Of a DNA stretch of 64,000 nucleotides, positions 1 through 14,219 are shown one piece after another. Within the stretch, counting starts at the first letter, position 1. Each line of letters starts with the position of its first letter. A program made the translations under genes and the position numbers. Source of the stretch: Escherichia coli (GTDB taxonomy: Bacteria > Pseudomonadota > Gammaproteobacteria > Enterobacterales > Enterobacteriaceae); NCBI RefSeq assembly GCF_003991155.1, contig NZ_CP031293.1. One strand, given 5' to 3'. Below the pieces are notes generated by a model that saw only the letters and a list, made by a program, of their open reading frames with translations, had not been told where the DNA came from and searched no databases.

Positions 1-94
1 TGCCTTGCTCGATATAGCGATCCGCTTCGCGGCGTGAGCAAATTCCGCTTTCGCTGATGTATTTATTTAAACGGACTGATGAGTCGGGCAGCAT
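1..94 (-). CDS. rluF: 23S rRNA pseudouridine synthase RluF, N-terminal ~31 codons only (gene continues beyond window start)
   Basis: Reverse complement of 1-94 reads [31 protein letters not shown], matching the RluF N-terminus; absent from ORF track because truncated. Confidence 0.75.
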
Positions 95-441
95 AAATTC
101 TCCTGTAAAACGCGGAATATACCGTACCTCTTAGCGGGGAAAAACAGGGTTATGCGGCAACGTCGAAATTAAATGTGATCTGCCACGCCTTTTATCACAA
201 AAGTGTCTCCGGAAGTACGATGCAAATTTGCCTGGCAAAATAAGGATAATCAACATATTACGAATCGCTGCACACCTGTGCTGATGACTACTACGCAGAG
301 AAACAAATGTGCAAGAGAAAGCGCTATTTCTCCCCATGCAAAGAGTGAAAAATCGCTTTGAAAGGCCATCATGATGGGGTTATATCAGATCAAGCGGTGA
401 GAAAGCGTATTTGCACAAATGTGCAGAACCAGGAGGCGGCA

Positions 442-1389
442 ATGGAAAACAGTGACGATATCCGTTTGATTGTGAAGATTGCCCAACTCTATTACGAACA
501 GGATATGACGCAGGCGCAAATCGCGTGCGAACTGGGTATTTACCGCACCACCATCAGCCGCTTGCTTAAACGAGGCCGCGATCAGGGAATTGTCACCATC
601 GCCATCAACTATGACTACAACGAAAATCTCTGGCTGGAGCAGCAACTGAAGCAAAAGTTTGGCCTGAAAGACGTTGTGGTGGTGTCGGGAAATGATGAGG
701 ATGAAGAGACTCAACTGGCGATGATGGGGTTACACGGCGCGCAACTGCTGGATCGCTTGCTGGAGCCTGGCGATATTGTCGGTTTTTCCTGGGGTCGCGC
801 GGTGAGCGCACTGGTTGAAAACTTGCCGCAGGCGGGGCAATCGCGGCAGTTAATCTGCATACCAATTATTGGCGGCCCGTCCGGTAAACTCGAAAGCCGC
901 TATCATGTAAACACATTAACCTACAGCGCGGCAGCGAAGTTGAAAGGGGAATCGCATCTCGCGGATTTTCCGGCTCTACTGGATAACCCCTTAATTCGTA
1001 ATGGGATCATGCAGTCTCAGCACTTTAAAACCATCTCTGCCTACTGGGATAATCTGGATGTCGCCCTGGTGGGAATTGGCTCACCGGCCATTCGCGACGG
1101 CGCTAACTGGCATGCGTTTTATGGTGGTGAAGAGAGTGACGACCTGAATGCCCGCCAGGTTGCTGGCGATATTTGCTCGCGCTTTTTTGATATTCACGGC
1201 GCAATGGTTGAAACGAATATGAGCGAAAAAACACTCTCTATCGAAATGAATAAATTAAAGCAGGCACGATATTCCATTGGCATTGCCATGAGTGAAGAAA
1301 AATACAGCGGAATTGTTGGTGCACTGCGTGGAAAATATATTAATTGTCTGGTAACGAATAGCAGCACAGCTGAACTATTACTGAAATAA
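442..1389 (+). CDS. sorC: SorC-family transcriptional regulator of the L-sorbose operon
   Basis: ORF 358-1389; preferred start ATG 442 (MENSDDIRLIVKIAQ) preceded by AGGAGG; N-terminal HTH plus sugar-phosphate-binding domain; first gene of the sorCDFBAME order. Confidence 0.75.
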   Translation: MENSDDIRLIVKIAQLYYEQDMTQAQIACELGIYRTTISRLLKRGRDQGIVTIAINYDYNENLWLEQQLKQKFGLKDVVVVSGNDEDEETQLAMMGLHGAQLLDRLLEPGDIVGFSWGRAVSALVENLPQAGQSRQLICIPIIGGPSGKLESRYHVNTLTYSAAAKLKGESHLADFPALLDNPLIRNGIMQSQHFKTISAYWDNLDVALVGIGSPAIRDGANWHAFYGGEESDDLNARQVAGDICSRFFDIHGAMVETNMSEKTLSIEMNKLKQARYSIGIAMSEEKYSGIVGALRGKYINCLVTNSSTAELLLK

Positions 1390-1458
1390 AAATCTTCCCG
1401 ATGTTTACCGTAATAAAAATTACGGCGGGTCCCTATTATCTAAAATCAGGAGTCTGTT

Positions 1459-2265
1459 ATGCAAACGTGGTTAAATTTGCAGAATAAAATCATTATTGTC
1501 ACCGGTGGCGCATCCGGCATTGGTCTGGCGATTGTGGATGAATTATTAGCACAAGGCGCGAATGTACAGATGGTCGATATTCACGGTGGCGATGGACAAT
1601 ATGAAGGTCATAAAGGCTATCAGTTTTGGCCGACCGATATTTCCAGCGCCAAAGAGGTAAATCATACGGTAGCAGAAATTATCCAGCGTTTTGGTCGCAT
1701 CGACGGTCTGGTCAATAACGCCGGGGTCAATTTTCCGCGTCTGCTGGTCGATGAGAAAGCGCCTGCCGGGCAGTATGAACTCAACGAAGCGGCATTCGAA
1801 AAAATGGTCAATATCAACCAGAAAGGCGTTTTTCTGATGTCGCAGGCGGTGGCGCGACAGATGGTCAAACAACATGATGGCGTGATTGTGAATGTTTCCT
1901 CAGAAAGTGGGCTGGAAGGCTCAGAAGGCCAAAGCTGTTACGCCGCGACCAAAGCCGCGCTCAATAGCTTCACGCGCTCCTGGTCGAAAGAGCTGGGTAA
2001 GCACGGTATCCGTGTGGTCGGTATCGCGCCGGGGATTCTGGAAAAAACAGGACTGCGCACGCCGGAATATGAAGAAGCGCTGGCTTGGACGCGCAATATC
2101 ACCGTCGAGCAGCTGCGTGAAGGCTATACCAAAAACGCCATTCCTATTGGGCGCGCCGGAAGATTAGCAGAAGTGGCTGATTTTGTTTGTTATCTGCTGT
2201 CTGAACGCGCCAGCTATATCACCGGAGTAACCACTAACATTGCGGGCGGCAAAACGCGCGGCTAA
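1459..2265 (+). CDS. sorD: Short-chain dehydrogenase/reductase, D-glucitol-6-phosphate dehydrogenase SorD-like
   Basis: 268 aa; SDR glycine motif TGGASGIG near N-terminus; SD CAGGAG before ATG; position in sor operon. Confidence 0.75.
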   Translation: MQTWLNLQNKIIIVTGGASGIGLAIVDELLAQGANVQMVDIHGGDGQYEGHKGYQFWPTDISSAKEVNHTVAEIIQRFGRIDGLVNNAGVNFPRLLVDEKAPAGQYELNEAAFEKMVNINQKGVFLMSQAVARQMVKQHDGVIVNVSSESGLEGSEGQSCYAATKAALNSFTRSWSKELGKHGIRVVGIAPGILEKTGLRTPEYEEALAWTRNITVEQLREGYTKNAIPIGRAGRLAEVADFVCYLLSERASYITGVTTNIAGGKTRG

Positions 2266-2274
2266 GGAGGCTTT

Positions 2275-2682
2275 ATGGTCAATGCCATTTTTTGCGCCCA
2301 CGGCAAATTAGCCTGCGCCATGCTGGAATCGGTTCAGATGGTGTACGGCGATGCCAGGGTCGAGGCAGTTGAATTTGTGCCCGGCGAGAACGCCGGAGAC
2401 ATTGTGGCAAAGCTGGAGAAGTTAGTGAGCATTCACAATCATGACGAGTGGCTAATCGCCGTGGATTTACAGTGCGGCAGCCCGTGGAATGCGGCAGCGG
2501 TGCTTGCGATGCGCAATCCTCGTCTGCGGGTAATCAGCGGCCTTTCACTGCCGCTGGCGCTCGAACTGGTTGATAACCAGGACAGCATGAATGTTGATGA
2601 ACTGTGTGAACACCTGACGCAAATCGCAAAGCAATCCTGCGTCGTCTGGAGACAGGTGGCAACGGCAGAGGAGGATTTCTGA
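2275..2682 (+). CDS. sorF: PTS mannose-family EIIA component (sorbose-specific)
   Basis: 135 aa; EIIA-Man-like N-terminus (MVNAIFCAHGKLA); SD AAGGAGG; operon position. Confidence 0.8.
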   Translation: MVNAIFCAHGKLACAMLESVQMVYGDARVEAVEFVPGENAGDIVAKLEKLVSIHNHDEWLIAVDLQCGSPWNAAAVLAMRNPRLRVISGLSLPLALELVDNQDSMNVDELCEHLTQIAKQSCVVWRQVATAEEDF

Positions 2683-3176
2683 TGAACATTACGCTCGCCC
2701 GCATTGATGACCGCCTGATCCACGGTCAGGTCACTACCGTCTGGTCGAAAGTGGCTAACGCCCAGCGCATTATTATCTGCAATGACGAAGTTTATAACGA
2801 TGAAGTTCGCCGGACATTATTGCGTCAGGCTGCGCCACCGGGAATGAAGGTTAACGTGGTCAATATTGAAAAAGCCGTCGCGGTTTATCACAACCCGCAA
2901 TATCAGGACGAAACCGTTTTTTATCTTTTCACTCGCCCACAGGATGCCTTAGCGATGGTTCGCCAGGGGGTAAAAATAGGTACCCTGAATATTGGCGGTA
3001 TGGCCTGGCGTCCTGGTAAAAAACAGTTAACCAAAGCAGTTTCATTAGATGACGATGATATTAACGCATTTCATGAGTTAAATAATCTTGGCGTCATACT
3101 GGATTTACGCGTCGTAGCGTCAGATCCCTCAATCAATATTATCGACAAAATAAACGAACAGTTAATCGCAAATTAA
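2682..3176 (+). CDS. sorB: PTS mannose-family EIIB component (sorbose-specific)
   Basis: 164 aa; EIIB-Man motif RIDDRLIHGQV with phospho-His; start overlaps sorF stop (TGATG). Confidence 0.8.
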   Translation: MNITLARIDDRLIHGQVTTVWSKVANAQRIIICNDEVYNDEVRRTLLRQAAPPGMKVNVVNIEKAVAVYHNPQYQDETVFYLFTRPQDALAMVRQGVKIGTLNIGGMAWRPGKKQLTKAVSLDDDDINAFHELNNLGVILDLRVVASDPSINIIDKINEQLIAN

Positions 3177-3241
3177 ATAATAGCGCCTGTGTACATATGC
3201 TTTAACAGGCAGGGATGACGACACTTAAAAGGTGACAAATC

Positions 3242-4039
3242 ATGGAAATAAGTACCCTACAAATTATTGCTATATTTCTTTTTTCCTGTATTGCCGGAAT
3301 GGGCAGCGTGCTGGATGAATTTCAGACTCATCGTCCGTTAATTGCCTGTACGGTGATTGGTTTAATTCTCGGTGATTTAAAAACCGGAATTATGCTCGGT
3401 GGTACGCTGGAATTGATAGCTCTCGGCTGGATGAACGTCGGCGCGGCGCAATCTCCGGATTCTGCACTCGCCAGCATAATCTCCGCCATTCTGGTTATCG
3501 TTGGTCAGCAAAGCATCGCCACCGGAATCGCCATCGCGTTGCCTGTGGCTGCGGCAGGCCAGGTGCTAACGGTGTTTGCCCGTACCATCACCGTAGTGTT
3601 CCAGCACGCGGCGGATAAAGCAGCGGAAGAAGCACGGTTTCGCACTCTCGATATTCTGCATGTCTCCGCGCTTGGCGTGCAGGCACTGCGCGTTGCTATT
3701 CCGGCACTGATTGTCTCGCTGTTCGTCAGCGCCGATATGGTGAGCAATATGCTGAGCGCCATTCCCGAATTTGTGACCCGTGGACTGCAGATTGCTGGCG
3801 GTTTTATCGTGGTGGTCGGTTACGCCATGGTGCTTCGCATGATGGGCGTGAAATATTTGATGCCTTTCTTTTTCCTCGGTTTCCTCGCAGGTGGCTACCT
3901 CGATCTCAGTCTGCTGGCGTTCGGTGGCGTCGGCGTGATCATGGCCCTGCTCTACATCCAGTTAAATCCACAGTGGCGTAAAGCTGAACCACATCCCCAG
4001 ACCACCACTATCACCGCCCTTGACCAACTTGATGATTAA
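3242..4039 (+). CDS. sorA: PTS mannose-family EIIC membrane component (sorbose-specific)
   Basis: 265 aa, highly hydrophobic multi-TM protein; operon position. Confidence 0.8.
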   Translation: MEISTLQIIAIFLFSCIAGMGSVLDEFQTHRPLIACTVIGLILGDLKTGIMLGGTLELIALGWMNVGAAQSPDSALASIISAILVIVGQQSIATGIAIALPVAAAGQVLTVFARTITVVFQHAADKAAEEARFRTLDILHVSALGVQALRVAIPALIVSLFVSADMVSNMLSAIPEFVTRGLQIAGGFIVVVGYAMVLRMMGVKYLMPFFFLGFLAGGYLDLSLLAFGGVGVIMALLYIQLNPQWRKAEPHPQTTTITALDQLDD

Positions 4040-4049
4040 CGGAGCCATC

Positions 4050-4874
4050 ATGGAACAGAGAAAAATTACACGCAGCGATCTGGTGAGCATGTTTCTGCGC
4101 TCCAACCTGCAACAGGCATCCTTTAACTTTGAACGTATTCACGGGCTGGGTTTTTGCTACGACATGATCCCCGCCATCAAACGACTTTACCCATTAAAAG
4201 AGGATCAGGTTGCGGCGCTCAGGCGACACCTGGTGTTCTTCAATACCACGCCAGCCGTATGTGGCCCGGTCATCGGCGTCACTGCCGCCATGGAAGAGGC
4301 GCGAGCCAACGGCGCGGAAATTGATGACGGTACCATTAACGGCATCAAAGTAGGTCTGATGGGACCATTGGCAGGAGTTGGCGATCCACTGGTCTGGGGA
4401 ACGCTGCGCCCGATTACCGCCGCGCTCGGCGCATCTCTGGCACTTTCGGGCAACATTCTCGGCCCCCTGCTGTTCTTCTTTATTTTCAATGCAGTACGTC
4501 TGGCAATGAAATGGTATGGGCTGCAACTGGGCTTTCGTAAAGGGGTGAATATCGTCAGCGATATGGGCGGTAATTTGCTGCAAAAACTGACCGAAGGCGC
4601 GTCGATTCTCGGGCTGTTTGTAATGGGCGTACTGGTGACCAAATGGACATCGATCAACGTGCCGTTAGTGGTTTCACAAACGCCTGCCGCCGATGGTGCC
4701 ACCGTCACTATGACCGTACAGAACATTCTCGACCAGCTTTGCCCTGGATTGCTGGCGCTCGGTTTGACGCTGCTGATGGTACGTCTGCTCAACAAAAAAA
4801 TTAACCCGGTATGGCTGATTTTCGCCCTGTTTGGTTTAGGGATTATCGGTAATGCGCTGGGCTTCCTGTCCTGA
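4050..4874 (+). CDS. sorM: PTS mannose-family EIID membrane component (sorbose-specific)
   Basis: ORF 4020-4874; preferred start ATG 4050 (MEQRKITRSDL) after ACGGAG; EIID-like hydrophobic protein. Confidence 0.8.
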   Translation: MEQRKITRSDLVSMFLRSNLQQASFNFERIHGLGFCYDMIPAIKRLYPLKEDQVAALRRHLVFFNTTPAVCGPVIGVTAAMEEARANGAEIDDGTINGIKVGLMGPLAGVGDPLVWGTLRPITAALGASLALSGNILGPLLFFFIFNAVRLAMKWYGLQLGFRKGVNIVSDMGGNLLQKLTEGASILGLFVMGVLVTKWTSINVPLVVSQTPAADGATVTMTVQNILDQLCPGLLALGLTLLMVRLLNKKINPVWLIFALFGLGIIGNALGFLS

Positions 4875-4925
4875 TTCTTCGCCCCGGCGCAACCGTCGGG
4901 GCCATCGTTCAACATGAGGTGGTTT

Positions 4926-6155
4926 ATGAAAACAACAGCTCTGCGTCTTTATGGTAAACGTGATTTACGCCTGGAAACCTTTGACCTTCCTGAAATGCAG
5001 GAGGATGAAATCCTCGCAACGGTGGTCACTGACAGCCTGTGCCTCTCTTCCTGGAAAGAGGCCAATCTGGGGGAAAACCATAAAAAAGTACCCGACGATG
5101 TGGCGACCAATCCCATCATCATCGGCCACGAATTTTGCGGCGATATTCTGGCCGTGGGTAAAAAGTGGCAGCACAAATTCCAGCCGGGTCAGCGTTATGT
5201 GATTCAGGCCAACCTGCAACTCCCCGACCGCCCGGACTGCCCCGGCTACTCCTTCCCGTGGGTAGGCGGCGAAGCGACGCATGTGGTTATTCCCAACGAG
5301 GTCATGGAACAAGATTGCCTGCTGGCATACGACGGCGAAACCTATTTTGAAGGCTCGCTGGTTGAACCGCTTTCCTGCGTGATTGGCGCGTTCAACGCCA
5401 ACTATCATCTTCAGGAAGGTAGTTATAACCACACGATGGGGATTCGCCCGCAAGGGCGCACGCTGATCCTCGGCGGCACCGGACCAATGGGACTGTTGGC
5501 GATTGATTATGCGCTACATGGACCCGTTAACCCTTCGCTGCTCGTCATTACCGATACCGACAACGACAAATTGAGTTATGCGCGCAAGCACTATCCATCA
5601 GAACCGCAAACACTGATTCATTATCTCAATGCCACCGATGCAGCATTTGATACGTTAATGGCGCTGAGTGGCGGTCACGGCTTCGATGATATTTTCGTCT
5701 TTGTGCCTAATGAAGGACTGGTGACTCTCGCCTCTTCCTTGCTGGCGACAGATGGTTGCCTGAATTTCTTCGCCGGACCGCAGGATAAGCACTTCAGCGC
5801 GCCAATTAATTTCTACGATGTGCATTATGCATTTACCCACTACGTAGGCACGTCAGGCGGCAATACCGACGACATGCGCGCAGCGGTCAAATTGATTGAA
5901 GAGAAAAAAGTGCAGGCCGCAAAAGTGGTAACACATATTCTTGGGCTGAATGCCGCGGGCGAAACCACGCTTGAATTGCCTGCCGTCGGCGGCGGGAAAA
6001 AACTGGTGTATACCGGGAAATATCTGCCGCTGACATCACTCACGCAGATTCAGGATGAAGAACTGGCGGCGATTCTGGCGCGTCATCAGGGAGTCTGGTC
6101 CGGCGAGGCGGAGCAGTACCTGCTCGCCCATGCAGAGGCGATTTCCCATGATTAA
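4926..6155 (+). CDS. sorE: L-sorbose-1-phosphate reductase, Zn-dependent alcohol dehydrogenase (MDR) family
   Basis: ORF 4914-6155; preferred start ATG 4926 after GAGGTGG; MDR-type motifs (GHEFCG; GGTGPMG nucleotide-binding loop); last sor gene. Confidence 0.7.
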   Translation: MKTTALRLYGKRDLRLETFDLPEMQEDEILATVVTDSLCLSSWKEANLGENHKKVPDDVATNPIIIGHEFCGDILAVGKKWQHKFQPGQRYVIQANLQLPDRPDCPGYSFPWVGGEATHVVIPNEVMEQDCLLAYDGETYFEGSLVEPLSCVIGAFNANYHLQEGSYNHTMGIRPQGRTLILGGTGPMGLLAIDYALHGPVNPSLLVITDTDNDKLSYARKHYPSEPQTLIHYLNATDAAFDTLMALSGGHGFDDIFVFVPNEGLVTLASSLLATDGCLNFFAGPQDKHFSAPINFYDVHYAFTHYVGTSGGNTDDMRAAVKLIEEKKVQAAKVVTHILGLNAAGETTLELPAVGGGKKLVYTGKYLPLTSLTQIQDEELAAILARHQGVWSGEAEQYLLAHAEAISHD

Positions 6156-6960
6156 TCGCGATACTCAACTCTGCATGTCGCTGGCCGGCTGCCCCGGTAA
6201 CTTCGGCACGCGTTTTCACAATTATCTTTATGAAAAGCTGGGGCTGAATTTCATCTATAAAGCGTTCACCACCCAGGATATTGCAGCGGCGGTGAAAGGG
6301 GTTCGCGCGTTGGGTATTCGCGGTTGCGCTGTGTCGATGCCGTTTAAAGAAAGCTGCATGCCTTTTCTCGACGCGATCGATCCGTCGGCGAAGGTCATTG
6401 ATTCCGTGAATACCATCGTGAATGACGACGGCAGGCTGACCGGGTTTAACACCGACTATATCGCGGTGAAAAGCCTGATTACCCACCACCAGCTCAATAC
6501 CACCACGCGAGTGATGATTCGCGGCAGTGGCGGCATGGGCAAAGCGGTGATTGCCGCCTTTCGCGACGCGGGGTTTACGGATGTTATCATTGCCGCCCGC
6601 AACCGCGAGAGCGGCCCGGCGCTGGCGAAGCAGTATGGGTTTCAGTGGCAACCGCAGCCGGAAGGCATCGCCTGCGACATTCTGGTCAACGTGACGCCCG
6701 TTGGCATGAGCGGCGGTAAAGAGAGCCATGAGCTGGCCTTCAGCGAAGCGATGGTCTCAACGGCAAGCGTCGTTTTTGATGTCGTGGCCTTGCCGCCGGA
6801 AACGCCGCTCATTCGCCTGGCGCAACGGCTTGATAAGCAGACGATTAGCGGTGCGGAGGTGATTGCTTTACAGGCCGTCGAGCAGTTCGCAATGTATACC
6901 GGCGTACGGCCTGATGCGCAACTGATTGCTGAGGCGGCACAATTTGCACGAGAAGGATAA
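6148..6960 (+). CDS. Shikimate 5-dehydrogenase-like (AroE/YdiB family) NAD(P)-dependent dehydrogenase, function in this context unknown
   Basis: ORF 6055-6960; preferred start ATG 6148 overlapping sorE stop (ATGATTAA); AroE-like motifs SMPFK and NTDY, glycine-rich GSGGMGKA. Confidence 0.6.
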   Translation: MINRDTQLCMSLAGCPGNFGTRFHNYLYEKLGLNFIYKAFTTQDIAAAVKGVRALGIRGCAVSMPFKESCMPFLDAIDPSAKVIDSVNTIVNDDGRLTGFNTDYIAVKSLITHHQLNTTTRVMIRGSGGMGKAVIAAFRDAGFTDVIIAARNRESGPALAKQYGFQWQPQPEGIACDILVNVTPVGMSGGKESHELAFSEAMVSTASVVFDVVALPPETPLIRLAQRLDKQTISGAEVIALQAVEQFAMYTGVRPDAQLIAEAAQFAREG

Positions 6961-7082
6961 GAAACATCAGCGCCTTGTTTGCCACGCCAGAAGCAATGCG
7001 CAACATCGTGAGCCATGTCAGTAAGCGGTTAAAATCACAGTGGTAGCATGGCTCCCGTGATTTCTTACTAACCGGAGAAGTA

Positions 7083-7772
7083 ATGGAACTGCTTTTATTG
7101 AGTAACTCGACGCTGCCGGGTAAAGCCTGGCTGGAACACGCGCTGCCGCTGATTGCTGAACAGTTGCAGGGTCGCCGTTCAGCGGTATTTATTCCTTTCG
7201 CTGGCGTAACGCAGACCTGGGATGATTACACAGCGAAAACGGCTGCGGTTCTCGCTCCGCTGGGTGTTTCTGTCACCGGTATTCATAGCGTTGTCGATCC
7301 CGTTGCCGCGATTGAAAATGCTGAGATCGTGATTGTCGGCGGCGGGAATACTTTCCAGTTGCTGAAACAGTGCCGCGAGCGCGGGCTGCTGGCACCAATT
7401 ACTGACGTGGTGAAACGTGGCGCGCTGTATATTGGCTGGAGCGCAGGCGCTAACCTTGCTTGCCCAACCATTCGTACCACCAACGATATGCCGATTGTCG
7501 ATCCGCAAGGTTTCGATGCGCTGAATCTGTTCCCGTTGCAAATCAACCCGCACTTCACCAACGCGCTGCCGGAAGGCCATAAAGGTGAAACGCGTGAGCA
7601 GCGTATTCGCGAACTGCTGGTCGTCGCGCCAGAACTCACAATTATTGGTCTACCGGAAGGTAACTGGATCACGGTGAGTAAAGGTCACGCTACGCTGGGT
7701 GGCCCGAACACCACTTATGTGTTTAAGGCTGGTGAAGAAGCGGTGCCGCTGGAAGCGGGTCACCGTTTTTAA
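7083..7772 (+). CDS. pepE: Peptidase E (alpha-aspartyl dipeptidase)
   Basis: 229 aa; [14 protein letters not shown]-terminus; SD GGAGAAG; conserved position next to yjbB. Confidence 0.9.
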
Positions 7773-7777
7773 GTGAA

Positions 7778-7852
7778 TTGCCGGATGCATAATCCGGCAT
7801 CTTGTTCATCGTGCCTGATGCGACGCTTTACGCGTCTTATCAGGCCTACAGG
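7778..7852. repeat. REP (repetitive extragenic palindromic) elements
   Basis: gccggatgcataatccggc and gcctgatgcgacgc...atcaggcctaca palindromic units between convergent pepE and yjbB. Confidence 0.7.
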
Positions 7853-7861
7853 GTCACGGTA

Positions 7862-9493
7862 TTAATACTCGTCCCGTCCTTCGTCTTCATCCGGCTGTTC
7901 CAGCACACTGTAAGCCACCGAACAAAACAGCGAGTTCAGACGCTGCATATCTCCCAGTAAGCCTAAATGTAGCGAACTGGTTTCAATGCTTTGCACGTTT
8001 TGCTGATGCAGGCGATCGACGTGAGCATGGGAATAACGGCGATTAAGAATGCGAAAGCGATGCTTGCTGCGGCGCAAACGACGGGCGCTGGTAACATCGC
8101 CAGAGAAGAAAACCGACATTGCCAGTTTTAAATTACTGAGCAATTGCTCATAGAGCGCATCCAGTTCCTTCAAGCCATCAAGCGAAAATGCCCGCCGTGC
8201 TGCCAGCGATTTATCGGCAATTTCGCTCCCCATGCGCTCGACGATATCGGAGGCCTGTTCAAGGTTGAGCGACATTTCGATGATCTCCGCCCAGCGGCGC
8301 GACTCTTCCTCCGCCAGCTCTTCTTTTGGCATCCGCGCCAGATACAGCTTAATGGCGGTATAGAGAACGTTGATATCATCTGCCAGCTTACGCAGCTCTT
8401 TCTCCTGCCGTGGCTCGCCGTGCATCACTTTATTCAGCCCTTCCATCATCTGTTCCATGGCGTCGCCAATGCGCAGGGTTTCGCGCGCGGCGTTCGCCAG
8501 AGCAAGCGTGGGCGTATCCAGCGCGCTGACATCCAGATGTTTGGGTCGTAGCTGGGTATCCAGTTCCGGTTCATCGCGAATAATCGTTTTGCAAAACCGT
8601 GCCATCGGGTCAACAAATGGCAGCATGACCAGGCAGCGTACAAGGTTGTAGAAGACGTGGAAATAGATCACCAGTTCCGCTTTTGGCAGTGGCAACTTCC
8701 CCATTGTCTCTGCCAGCAAATGGACAAACGGCAGGATAATCAGGCTACCCACCAGCTTAAACAGCAGGCTACCCAGCGCGACACGGCGGGCTGCGGCATT
8801 GGCGGCACTGTTGTTGAGCATCGCCAGCAGACCGGAACCGAGGTTAGCACCAATCACCAGACAGAGCGCCACGGGGAAGGAGATAATGCCTGCGGCGGTC
8901 AGAGTCGCGGTCAGCAGTACAGCAGCAAGGCTGGAGTAGCTGATAATGGCGAACATCGCGCCAATCAGCGCATCCAGCAGAATATCGCCGGTCAGCGAGG
9001 CAAAGATCACCTGAACGCCGTTTGCCTGGGTGATCGGCGTTACGGCCTGCACAATCAACTCCAGCGCCAGCAAAATCAGCCCAAGACCAATACCGACGCG
9101 GCCCAGTTGCCCGGCGCGTGACTGTTTGCGTCCGAGGAAAAAAATCACGCCGATAAAAATAAGTAACGGTGACAGCCAGGATAAGTCGAAGGTGAGAATA
9201 CGCGCCATTAGCGCCGTCCCGACATCTGCACCCAGCACAATCACCAGAGCCGGTGCGAGGGCTACCAGATCCTGAGCGACAAACGAGGTCACCAGCATGG
9301 TGGTGGCATTACTGCTCTGCACCAGTGCGGTAACGCCTATCCCCGCGCAAAAGGCGAGCGGCTTCTTTTCGACGCTTCGGCTAAGAACAGTACGCAGACG
9401 CGCGCCGAAGACGCGCATTACGCCGGTTCGAACAATATGAGTCCCCCAGACCAGCAGGGCGACGGCAGAAAGCAGGTGAAGCAAAGTTAGCAC
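7862..9493 (-). CDS. yjbB: Na+/phosphate symporter-like inner membrane protein (PhoU-domain containing)
   Basis: 543 aa; GTG start with GGAGAA upstream; multi-TM N-terminal half plus charged PhoU-like C-terminal half. Confidence 0.85.
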   Translation of the reverse strand: MLTLLHLLSAVALLVWGTHIVRTGVMRVFGARLRTVLSRSVEKKPLAFCAGIGVTALVQSSNATTMLVTSFVAQDLVALAPALVIVLGADVGTALMARILTFDLSWLSPLLIFIGVIFFLGRKQSRAGQLGRVGIGLGLILLALELIVQAVTPITQANGVQVIFASLTGDILLDALIGAMFAIISYSSLAAVLLTATLTAAGIISFPVALCLVIGANLGSGLLAMLNNSAANAAARRVALGSLLFKLVGSLIILPFVHLLAETMGKLPLPKAELVIYFHVFYNLVRCLVMLPFVDPMARFCKTIIRDEPELDTQLRPKHLDVSALDTPTLALANAARETLRIGDAMEQMMEGLNKVMHGEPRQEKELRKLADDINVLYTAIKLYLARMPKEELAEEESRRWAEIIEMSLNLEQASDIVERMGSEIADKSLAARRAFSLDGLKELDALYEQLLSNLKLAMSVFFSGDVTSARRLRRSKHRFRILNRRYSHAHVDRLHQQNVQSIETSSLHLGLLGDMQRLNSLFCSVAYSVLEQPDEDEGRDEY

Positions 9494-9663
9494 GGAATCA
9501 GGTTCTCCTTTTTGTTATGCATTTTCCTGTTAAGATTTTTCTAATCACGTTATTTTTATCCAGGCATTTCTCTTGTATGTACTTTCAGTATAAGAGATTT
9601 ATACAAGAAAGCATTTAAAAAGGCATTTATATAAAAATCCACCTGTATCTGTTGCTATTTCTG

Positions 9664-10113
9664 TCACACTTTCCCCTGTCGTTTACACCAGATAATCGTT
9701 GTCACTTTTGTGACCTCTGAGAAGATAAACAACGAAATATTTAAGACCAGATCCTGTGAATGAAAATAATTAAGTAACAACGGTATTACGGAGATTGAAC
9801 AGCTTACGGTAGCAAAACGCATAAACTCCTGAATCGCCAAAAAAGAGAAACTAAATAATTCTTGTCTTAAAAAACATTGCGCAGAAAAGAATAAAGAGAA
9901 CAATAATACTATTTGTAGCGTAACAGTGGCGACTGCATAAGCGTAAAAACCGCCTTCAACACCGATATCCTTAAGTAAAGAAAGTGAATGAACGATATCG
10001 GAATAAAAAGGGATACGACCATTACCAAGCGAGTAGAACAAATATGTGGCTATCGCGATAACATCCATGACACCCCAAAAAAGAAGAATGTATTTTTTAT
10101 ATTGACGTTGCAT
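9664..10113 (-). CDS. Small hydrophobic membrane protein, unknown function (accessory)
   Basis: 149 aa; ATG start with AAAGGA upstream; about 4 predicted TM segments; AT-rich codon usage unlike flanking core genes. Confidence 0.4.
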   Translation of the reverse strand: MQRQYKKYILLFWGVMDVIAIATYLFYSLGNGRIPFYSDIVHSLSLLKDIGVEGGFYAYAVATVTLQIVLLFSLFFSAQCFLRQELFSFSFLAIQEFMRFATVSCSISVIPLLLNYFHSQDLVLNISLFIFSEVTKVTTIIWCKRQGKV

Positions 10114-10155
10114 AAAGTAAATCCTTTTTACGAAAACAAATATTACCAGGAATTA

Positions 10156-10476
10156 TTATAATTGCGGGCGTTTTTGGATTAACACTCCACCCGTATTTTT
10201 AAAAATCCTGTCAGCCATACCTTCACTAAACAAGACATCGATACGCCCTTTACTTTTATCGTGATACAGAATACTGCATGAGATACACCTTATACCCTCT
10301 TTGGATTTACGAAAATCTAACCAAAAACGACCATCATAAAAGACCCACTCCACACCTGTTTTTATATTAATTATCCAATCATTATAACCTGTTGGTTTTT
10401 TTCCTAATAGTTCAGTAACTTCGGACTCTGAACATCCTTCGAAAGCAAAAAAATCTATTTCATCGATTTTTATCAT
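10156..10476 (-). CDS. Small soluble protein, unknown function (accessory)
   Basis: ORF 10156-10482 opens on TTG; preferred ATG at 10476 (MIKIDEIDFF); Trp/Phe-rich; AT-rich; no strong SD. Confidence 0.35.
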   Translation of the reverse strand: MIKIDEIDFFAFEGCSESEVTELLGKKPTGYNDWIINIKTGVEWVFYDGRFWLDFRKSKEGIRCISCSILYHDKSKGRIDVLFSEGMADRIFKNTGGVLIQKRPQL

Positions 10477-10502
10477 GTTCAATAATCCATTATTTATGAC
10501 AT

Positions 10503-10530
10503 TAAAAACCGGGGCAAATACCCCGGTGTT
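10503..10530 (-). terminator. Rho-independent terminator of metH
   Basis: Minus-strand hairpin CCGGGGTATTTGCCCCGG followed by TTTTTAATG immediately after metH stop. Confidence 0.7.
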
Positions 10531-10535
10531 ATCAC

Positions 10536-14219
<3,684 letters not shown>

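Follow-up and report, generated by a model that had tools for sequence, protein, structure and literature searches.

An Escherichia coli L-sorbose operon with an intact eighth gene, sdhL, between rluF and pepE

The closest described systems for L-sorbose catabolism are the sor operon of Klebsiella pneumoniae (Sprenger, Wehmeier and Lengeler) and the seven-gene sor operons of Escherichia coli CFT073, O157:H7, ST131 and similar strains, which confer L-sorbose growth in experiments (PMC2831201; PMC12817954). The seven CFT073 sor genes give growth on L-sorbose when cloned in DH5alpha (PMC2831201), ST131 no longer gains growth from sorbose once sorE is deleted, and sorbose supports growth of an ST648 strain (PMC12817954). 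The sor locus is already known biology, a textbook accessory catabolic module, and the operon has recently been proposed as a marker of high-risk E. coli lineages. Here we describe the sor locus at the start of a 64,000-nucleotide stretch of E. coli DNA (RefSeq assembly GCF_003991155.1, contig NZ_CP031293.1), referred to as the window. With a probability of roughly 90%, positions 130-6986 are the chromosomal Enterobacteriaceae L-sorbose operon in its complete, ancestral eight-cistron form, sorCDFBAME-sdhL. What the locus adds to the known picture is the eighth gene, sdhL, which is intact here, appears ancestral across Enterobacteriaceae and is deleted in most Sor+ E. coli.

After the 5' end of rluF, eight genes run on the + strand up to pepE in the order sorC-sorD-sorF-sorB-sorA-sorM-sorE-sdhL, according to the open reading frame (ORF) list, the profile searches and the RefSeq annotation. 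The seven classical genes are the following.

442..1389, + strand: sorC, SorC-family regulator with a helix-turn-helix and a sugar-binding domain (PF04198 Sugar-bind, 3e-80)
1459..2265, + strand: sorD, D-glucitol (sorbitol)-6-phosphate dehydrogenase of the short-chain dehydrogenase/reductase (SDR) family (NF004817, 499.9 bits against a cutoff of 304)
2275..2682, + strand: sorF, enzyme IIA (EIIA) of the mannose family, EIIA-man (TIGR00824, 144.7 bits against 98)
2682..3176, + strand: sorB, enzyme IIB EIIB-Sor, IIB-sorbose (TIGR00854, 223 bits, above cutoff), with a RIDDRLIHGQ motif
3242..4039, + strand: sorA, enzyme IIC EIIC-Sor, EII-Sor IIC (TIGR00822, 422 bits against 340)
4050..4874, + strand: sorM, enzyme IID EIID-Sor, EIID-AGA (TIGR00828, 473 bits, above cutoff)
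4926..6155, + strand: sorE, L-sorbose-1-phosphate reductase, a Zn-dependent medium-chain dehydrogenase/reductase (MDR) with ADH_N/ADH_zinc_N domains; name and start as in RefSeq, with an alternative start at 4914 possible

The family assignments of these seven products have E-values from 1e-16 to 1e-150, far beyond chance. SorC matches the crystal structure of K. pneumoniae SorC (2W48) over its full length with E=3e-182, SorD carries the TGGASGIG and YAATK motifs, and SorB is identical to K. pneumoniae IIB-Sor, also a crystal structure (1NRZ), at 139 of 160 residues. The homologues of SorE bear the name L-sorbose 1-phosphate reductase. A K. pneumoniae-complex locus (L084), the SorB of which equals 1NRZ at 160/160 residues, served as the K. 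pneumoniae-type reference, and identities to its proteins are 86% for SorC, 88% for SorD, 71% for SorF, 85% for SorB, 93% for SorA, 96% for SorM, 86% for SorE and 84% for SdhL. The junctions are compact, with 1 nt shared by sorF and sorB and 9-70 nt in the remaining sor gaps. A first-pass annotation, made from the sequence alone, had claimed seven collinear sorCDFBAME genes of these families with tight or overlapping junctions and had pointed to the K. pneumoniae Sor proteins for comparison; the common + strand, the profile scores, the spacing and the 71-96% identity of all seven products bear this out. Its gene list for 1-7082 was incomplete, the seven genes being there and sdhL at 6148-6960 having gone unlisted. 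The seven genes are the predicted L-sorbose operon, orthologous to the Klebsiella sor genes.

The K. pneumoniae operon is like the window in gene order, in protein families and in its rluF ... yjbB-metH-iclR neighbourhood, and differs in having no pepE at the site and a SorF only 71% identical. SorF is the most variable product in general, at 93% identity to O157 where its neighbours reach 96-99%, and at 71% to the K. pneumoniae type where its neighbours reach 85-96%. Four sorF clusters have been reported, which match this variability (PMC12817954).

Models at the family level do not tell mannose, fructose and sorbose systems apart, and SorM passes a ManZ-type subfamily cutoff (415 bits against 365), so the phosphotransferase system (PTS) could in principle belong to another member of the mannose family, specific for mannose, N-acetylgalactosamine/galactosamine or fructoselysine. 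We consider the chance of this close to negligible. The products are 71-96% identical to the K. pneumoniae-type Sor proteins, including the structurally solved IIB-Sor, and sorE and sorD lie in linkage with the PTS genes. None of the Aga equivalog models comes near its cutoff (AgaW 147 against 300, AgaE 167 against 500), the ManX model stays below its own (211 bits against 400), and best matches to a different mannose-family PTS, the outcome named earlier as fatal to a sorbose assignment, were not what we found. In addition, there is direct genetic evidence from the orthologous E. coli operons (PMC2831201; PMC12817954).

Orthologous systems have been characterised in Klebsiella and E. coli, and from them the steps of the pathway can be proposed as follows. 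Phosphate would be relayed from phosphoenolpyruvate (PEP) through enzyme I (EI) and HPr to SorF (EIIA) and on to SorB (EIIB), and SorA and SorM (EIIC and EIID) would take up L-sorbose as L-sorbose-1-phosphate. SorE would reduce L-sorbose-1-phosphate to D-glucitol-6-phosphate, which SorD would oxidise to fructose-6-phosphate. SorC, the product of the first gene, would control the operon through the TGCACAnnTGTGCA-type palindromes that are conserved in the rluF-sorC interval, and the translation of sdhL would be coupled to that of sorE and its expression to that of the operon. Growth on L-sorbose, induction by L-sorbose and control by SorC are thus proposed for this operon by analogy.

The eighth gene follows sorE directly.

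6148..6960, + strand: sdhL, shikimate-dehydrogenase-like gene of the SdhL class, 270 amino acids, 813 bp (NF009202 "shikimate 5-dehydrogenase", 463.8 bits against 306)

Its start codon lies within the last sorE codons, giving an 8-nt overlap with the sorE stop (ATGATTAA; CATGATTAA). SdhL matches Haemophilus influenzae HI0607 (SdhL; PDB 1NPY), the first member of the SdhL class, with E=2.5e-111 over 268 residues and 68% identity, and is 64-68% identical to the orthologues of Haemophilus and other Pasteurellaceae, with 66% to that of Haemophilus haemolyticus by BLASTP. The AroE model TIGR00507 scores 164 on SdhL against a cutoff of 200, and the AroE and YdiB structures match it at E-values of 1e-32 or weaker. 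On sequence grounds SdhL belongs with HI0607 in a clade separate from AroE and YdiB; the window protein and HI0607 are alike in their full-length match, in the catalytic Lys67 and Asp103, which are kept and align between the two, and in the equivalog NF009202. When SdhL is aligned with AroE structures, the AroE Ser-x-Ser positions correspond to Asn18 and Gly20 of SdhL and the Tyr of the AroE "DIIY" motif to Ala214, with Asn88 and Gln242 retained. All of these residues (N18, G20, K67, N88, D103, A214 and Q242) are invariant in 15 diverse SdhL sequences. In AroE, the Ser-x-Ser motif binds the shikimate carboxylate. HI0607 reportedly oxidises shikimate in vitro about 1000-fold more slowly than AroE (Singh et al. 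2005, JBC), and this slow oxidation is said to be NADP-dependent and to come with no quinate activity. The replaced serines of SdhL fit with such very slow turnover by HI0607, which suggests a different physiological substrate; shikimate is probably not the real substrate of SdhL, and its cofactor is probably NADP(H). The dN/dS of sdhL is 0.05-0.08, including Kluyvera and Pluralibacter, and the gene is under strong purifying selection wherever tested.

The state of sdhL divides E. coli. Among 5426 complete E. coli genomes, the sor block is present in 2865 and the others have the K-12 junction, a frequency that agrees with the phylogroup figures of PMC12817954. The locus is found in three states: an empty site, a seven-gene operon with a scar of sdhL, and the eight-gene operon. 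Intact sdhL was found in 176 genomes, 175 of them at at least 99% identity, including CE10 and IMT16316, and about 94% of the sor+ genomes are without an intact copy. The seven-gene operons lie at the same site and share 96.9% DNA identity over window positions 1-6205; they differ from the window, where sdhL is intact, by an internal sdhL deletion of about 700 bp and a premature stop in the 5' stub. In the O157-type scar, sdhL survives as its first 58 bp, in which codon 7 is an in-frame TAA, joined to its last ~55 bp. The decayed 5' and 3' stubs that remain are 86% identical to the window compared with 95-99% for the neighbouring sorC, sorE and pepE, as expected of a decaying pseudogene. A 151-bp junction probe has a full-length match in 2578 of the genomes, including O157:H7, O111 and ST131, and the CFT073 cloning primer sits on the same sdhL stub (PMC2831201). 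Therefore, most Sor+ E. coli share one deletion allele, whereas the window carries the undeleted form and its lineage is CE10/ST648-like.

That sdhL lies beside sor in ST648 and responds to sorbose is already in the 2025 paper of Swiatek et al., who found the gene, among their sequence types, only in ST648 and differentially expressed with L-sorbose (PMC12817954). They call sdhL "upstream" and an ST-specific insertion (PMC12817954). Read along the coding strand, however, sdhL is the last cistron, 3' of sorE, and what remains of it in the other sequence types is the deletion scar. The evidence points to retention of sdhL in ST648 rather than insertion; what was called an insertion is more plausibly the ancestral state, and nearly all other Sor+ E. 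coli carry the scar.

In E. coli O157:H7 (L002, 7777-7939), 163 bp without counterpart in the window are inserted between the sdhL stub and pepE; by eye this insert resembles a repetitive extragenic palindrome (REP) or bacterial interspersed mosaic element (BIME), with GCCGGATGCGG...CCTAC motifs.

The published description of the K. pneumoniae sor operon is said to end at sorE and to leave an eighth gene unnamed. A species-level scan for sdhL returned 80 loci, and in about 30 enterobacterial species the gene lies directly 3' of sorE with the same overlap. The arrangement sorCDFBAME-sdhL stands next to pepE/yjbB in Pseudocitrobacter, E. albertii, E. whittamii, Citrobacter, the K. oxytoca group, Raoultella and one Enterobacter sp. 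Genomes of the K. pneumoniae complex have it beside yjbB without pepE, with sdhL overlapping sorE as in the window, and one Serratia sp. shows the same gene order with pepE/yjbB neighbours not identifiable. The classical "sorCDFBAME" description is one gene short: in Klebsiella and many other genera sorE is followed by sdhL, a conserved and selected gene.

Alternatively, the functional unit could be the classical seven-gene operon, with sdhL an unrelated passenger gene that is read through, perhaps one for a shikimate dehydrogenase serving as a weak back-up. We regard this as possible, though doubtful. Since seven genes suffice for sorbose growth (PMC2831201), SdhL is dispensable for it, as a passenger would be, and the loss of intact sdhL from most sor+ E. 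coli is in line with this. The constancy of the 8-nt sorE/sdhL overlap across many genera argues the other way, and so does a more distant contig (L088, 2334-9203; Logan SRR35949619), where sdhL once more comes after a complete sorCDFBAME set, here at another chromosomal site, with GST/beta-lactamase genes on one side and a fimbrial usher on the other. There, SorE is 73% and SdhL 64% identical to the window, and sorE and sdhL are spaced by 136 nt with no overlap. Outside the sor context, sdhL follows secB-gpsA-cysE without sor neighbours in Pasteurellaceae, which is where HI0607 differs from the window gene, and read by eye it lies among unrelated housekeeping genes in Pseudomonas, Lautropia, Neisseria, Ewingella and others. 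Its neighbours outside Enterobacterales include cysE/gpsA/secB, udp, rimM-trmD-rplS, metF, exbBD, alkB and an RTX exporter; when these were clustered and read by eye, no recurrent functional partner of sdhL was found there. Such contexts favour a passenger, and from them it follows that the function of sdhL is not strictly sorbose-specific.

The loci that have kept sdhL without a sor PTS bear on both sides. In Pluralibacter, sdhL stands alone beside yjbB, as a passenger might. Six Kluyvera species without sorDFBAME also retain sdhL, but together with a sorC-like gene (70% identical) in a compact unit between rluF and pepE (K. cryocrescens L018, 9054-10812; also L019, L022, L028, L030 and L032). 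The sorC-like gene keeps TGCACAnnTGTGCA palindromes upstream, and sdhL, which has a ribosome-binding site of its own, follows it after 20 nt. A sorC-like gene adjoins sdhL in Serratia silvae as well. That regulator and palindrome stay upstream of sdhL after loss of the PTS speaks against a mere passenger, as do the reported sorbose response of sdhL in ST648 (PMC12817954) and the replacement of the carboxylate-binding serines of AroE; the slow in vitro shikimate oxidation reported for HI0607 would suit a back-up dehydrogenase. We prefer to read sdhL as the eighth cistron of the operon.

Several loci of the comparison deserve separate mention. In Kluyvera L022 and L032, the ORF caller missed the full-length sorC-like ORF, and tblastn still aligns it. 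The sor locus of Yersinia vastinensis (L087, 3128-8251) is sorC-FBAM-E, lacking sorD and sdhL, with a kinase/aldolase/DeoR cluster after it, and E. fergusonii (L089, 2522-8913) has sorCDFBAME without sdhL and pepE, a DUF2058 gene being in their place. Between the window and Pseudocitrobacter faecalis (L004), E. whittamii and E. albertii, the dS of sdhL is 0.36, 0.40 and 0.46, respectively, and for sorE the order is reversed, with 0.27 to E. whittamii and 0.56 to Pseudocitrobacter. Recombination at the operon's 3' end might account for this contrast.

No genomic context of the SdhL class other than the sor linkage was found to recur, and this linkage suggests substrates to test. 5-Keto-D-fructose, like L-sorbose, is produced by acetic acid bacteria. 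In the Gluconobacter 5-keto-D-fructose reductase (KFR), Asn21 stands where AroE has its first substrate-binding Ser, and SdhL Asn18 may be the equivalent residue. Enzymes of the shikimate dehydrogenase (SDH) fold reduce 5-keto-D-fructose, with D-fructose or L-sorbose as the reduction products (PMC7954740). By analogy with these reductases (Gluconobacter KFR 7COK and Tatumella TM-KFR), which belong to the same superfamily and set a precedent for keto-sugar reduction, a sorbose-related keto-sugar is suggested as an attractive candidate substrate of SdhL. The KFRs differ in that their relation to SdhL is distant, no closer than that of ordinary AroE enzymes; 7COK is a distant PDB match at 2e-16. 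TM-KFR was rejected as an SdhL orthologue on size, at ~36 kDa with tag compared with ~29 kDa for SdhL. A bolder proposal is that SdhL is a SorC-controlled eighth member of the sor regulon, with a keto-sugar or sugar phosphate related to sorbose, such as 5-keto-D-fructose or its phosphate, as its substrate in place of shikimate. We rate it as rather unlikely. If true, it would be the first physiological role for the orphan SdhL class and could explain the survival of the sorC-sdhL pair in Kluyvera.

The borders of the block were set by comparison with K-12.

1..93, - strand: 5' end of rluF, with its start codon at 93; left flank, outside the operon, read from the reverse complement
130..6986, no strand: block absent from K-12-type E. 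coli (blastn against the K-12-type locus L003)
6961..7082, + strand: sdhL-pepE spacer, in which K-12 homology restarts at 6987

The K-12-type locus aligns by blastn to window positions 1-129 and 6987-7800 only, and 80 unrelated bp replace 130-6986. The rluF label for 1-93 comes from the RefSeq annotation of a 100%-identical record, E. coli 2016C-3878. In the RefSeq annotation pepE starts at 7083 and is followed by yjbB, metH, iclR and aceKAB. The earlier statements that rluF adjoins pepE in K-12 and that sor maps near metH/pepE agree with this layout, in which sor lies between rluF and pepE-yjbB-metH-iclR. The interval 1-7082 once assigned to the operon does contain the sor genes; it was drawn too wide, as bases 1-93 are rluF and the part absent from K-12 is only 130-6986.

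Presence/absence polymorphism within E. coli, and a K-12 filler without recognisable sor remnant, could also be explained by a horizontally acquired island between rluF and pepE, the empty K-12 site being ancestral. This is very unlikely in our view. In other Escherichia species and in Klebsiella, Citrobacter, Raoultella, Pseudocitrobacter and Enterobacter, this site holds the same genes, and in E. fergusonii too sor genes lie at the rluF ... yjbB-metH site. No mobility gene, integrase or IS element was found at the block, no direct or inverted repeat longer than 5 nt flanks its borders, a tRNA scan returned none, and an Rfam scan of 1-10500 gave no RNA families. The GC content of the block shows no shift (0.518, compared with 0.525 for the whole window). 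The 80-bp K-12 filler has no similarity to any of the sor loci and is therefore uninformative on how K-12 lost the block. Because the site is the same across genera and marks of mobile elements are missing, the simplest reading is a vertically inherited block that was lost in K-12-like lineages. The term "accessory block" used in the first-pass annotation is right for the presence/absence pattern in E. coli and misleading if it means an inserted island, as the cross-genus synteny indicates an ancestral locus.

Between sdhL and pepE, no convincing terminator was found; all that the scan gave there was a weak stem of 5 bp (7047-7059), which K-12 has as well. The terminator scan found a clear terminator 3' of pepE.

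The region upstream of sorC contains several conserved elements.

187..205, + strand: box TCACAAAAGTG, candidate distal SorC operator, repeat family D1, with CACAAAAGTG conserved from Escherichia to Serratia
269..282, + strand: imperfect palindrome TGCACACCTGTGCT, candidate SorC operator, with the core GCACAnnnGTGC conserved across genera
303..314, + strand: half-site ACAAATGTGCAA, candidate SorC operator, with CAAATGTGCAA nearly invariant across genera
358..386, + strand: putative sor promoter, TTGAAA (358-363), 17 nt, TATATC (381-386), read by eye
412..425, + strand: perfect palindrome TGCACAAATGTGCA, candidate SorC operator, 16 nt 5' of the sorC start codon

The TGCACAAATGTGCA palindrome is found at -30/-32 in 37 of 38 sorC upstream regions and also 5' of the Kluyvera sorC-like gene, and we infer that the copy at 412-425 is the strongest candidate for a SorC operator. 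SorC-family repressors act as tetramers on tandem operators (PMC11229326); no SorC footprint was found in the literature searched. TTGAAA-17 nt-TATATC is a plausible sor promoter, and in the upstream alignment GCTTTG and GTTATATCAGATCA of the promoter region are conserved across genera.

Several points weigh against 130-6986 being the complete, ancestral eight-cistron operon. The operator and promoter assignments were drawn from conservation only, and a strict consensus promoter scan upstream of sorC gave no match. The case for co-transcription of sdhL consists of the 8-nt overlap and one published differential-expression statement. Furthermore, sdhL exists without sor genes in Pasteurellaceae, Pseudomonas, Lautropia and Pluralibacter, and with only the sorC-like gene in Kluyvera. 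The deletion shared by most Sor+ E. coli could be a single event or could have spread by recombination.

Two minor observations concern other parts of the window. An ORF at 131-337 (- strand, 68 amino acids) and other antisense ORFs were rejected as spurious, since RefSeq does not have them and they overlap real genes or the control region. Between yjbB and metH, a low-GC islet at 9500-10560 (~34-35% GC, compared with ~52% for the window) carries two hypothetical genes on the - strand, at 9664-10113 (149 amino acids, membrane-like) and ~10156-10476 (106 amino acids). This islet is found in 1132 of the 5426 E. coli genomes, and a gene pair of the same size lies at the same place in E. fergusonii (L089).

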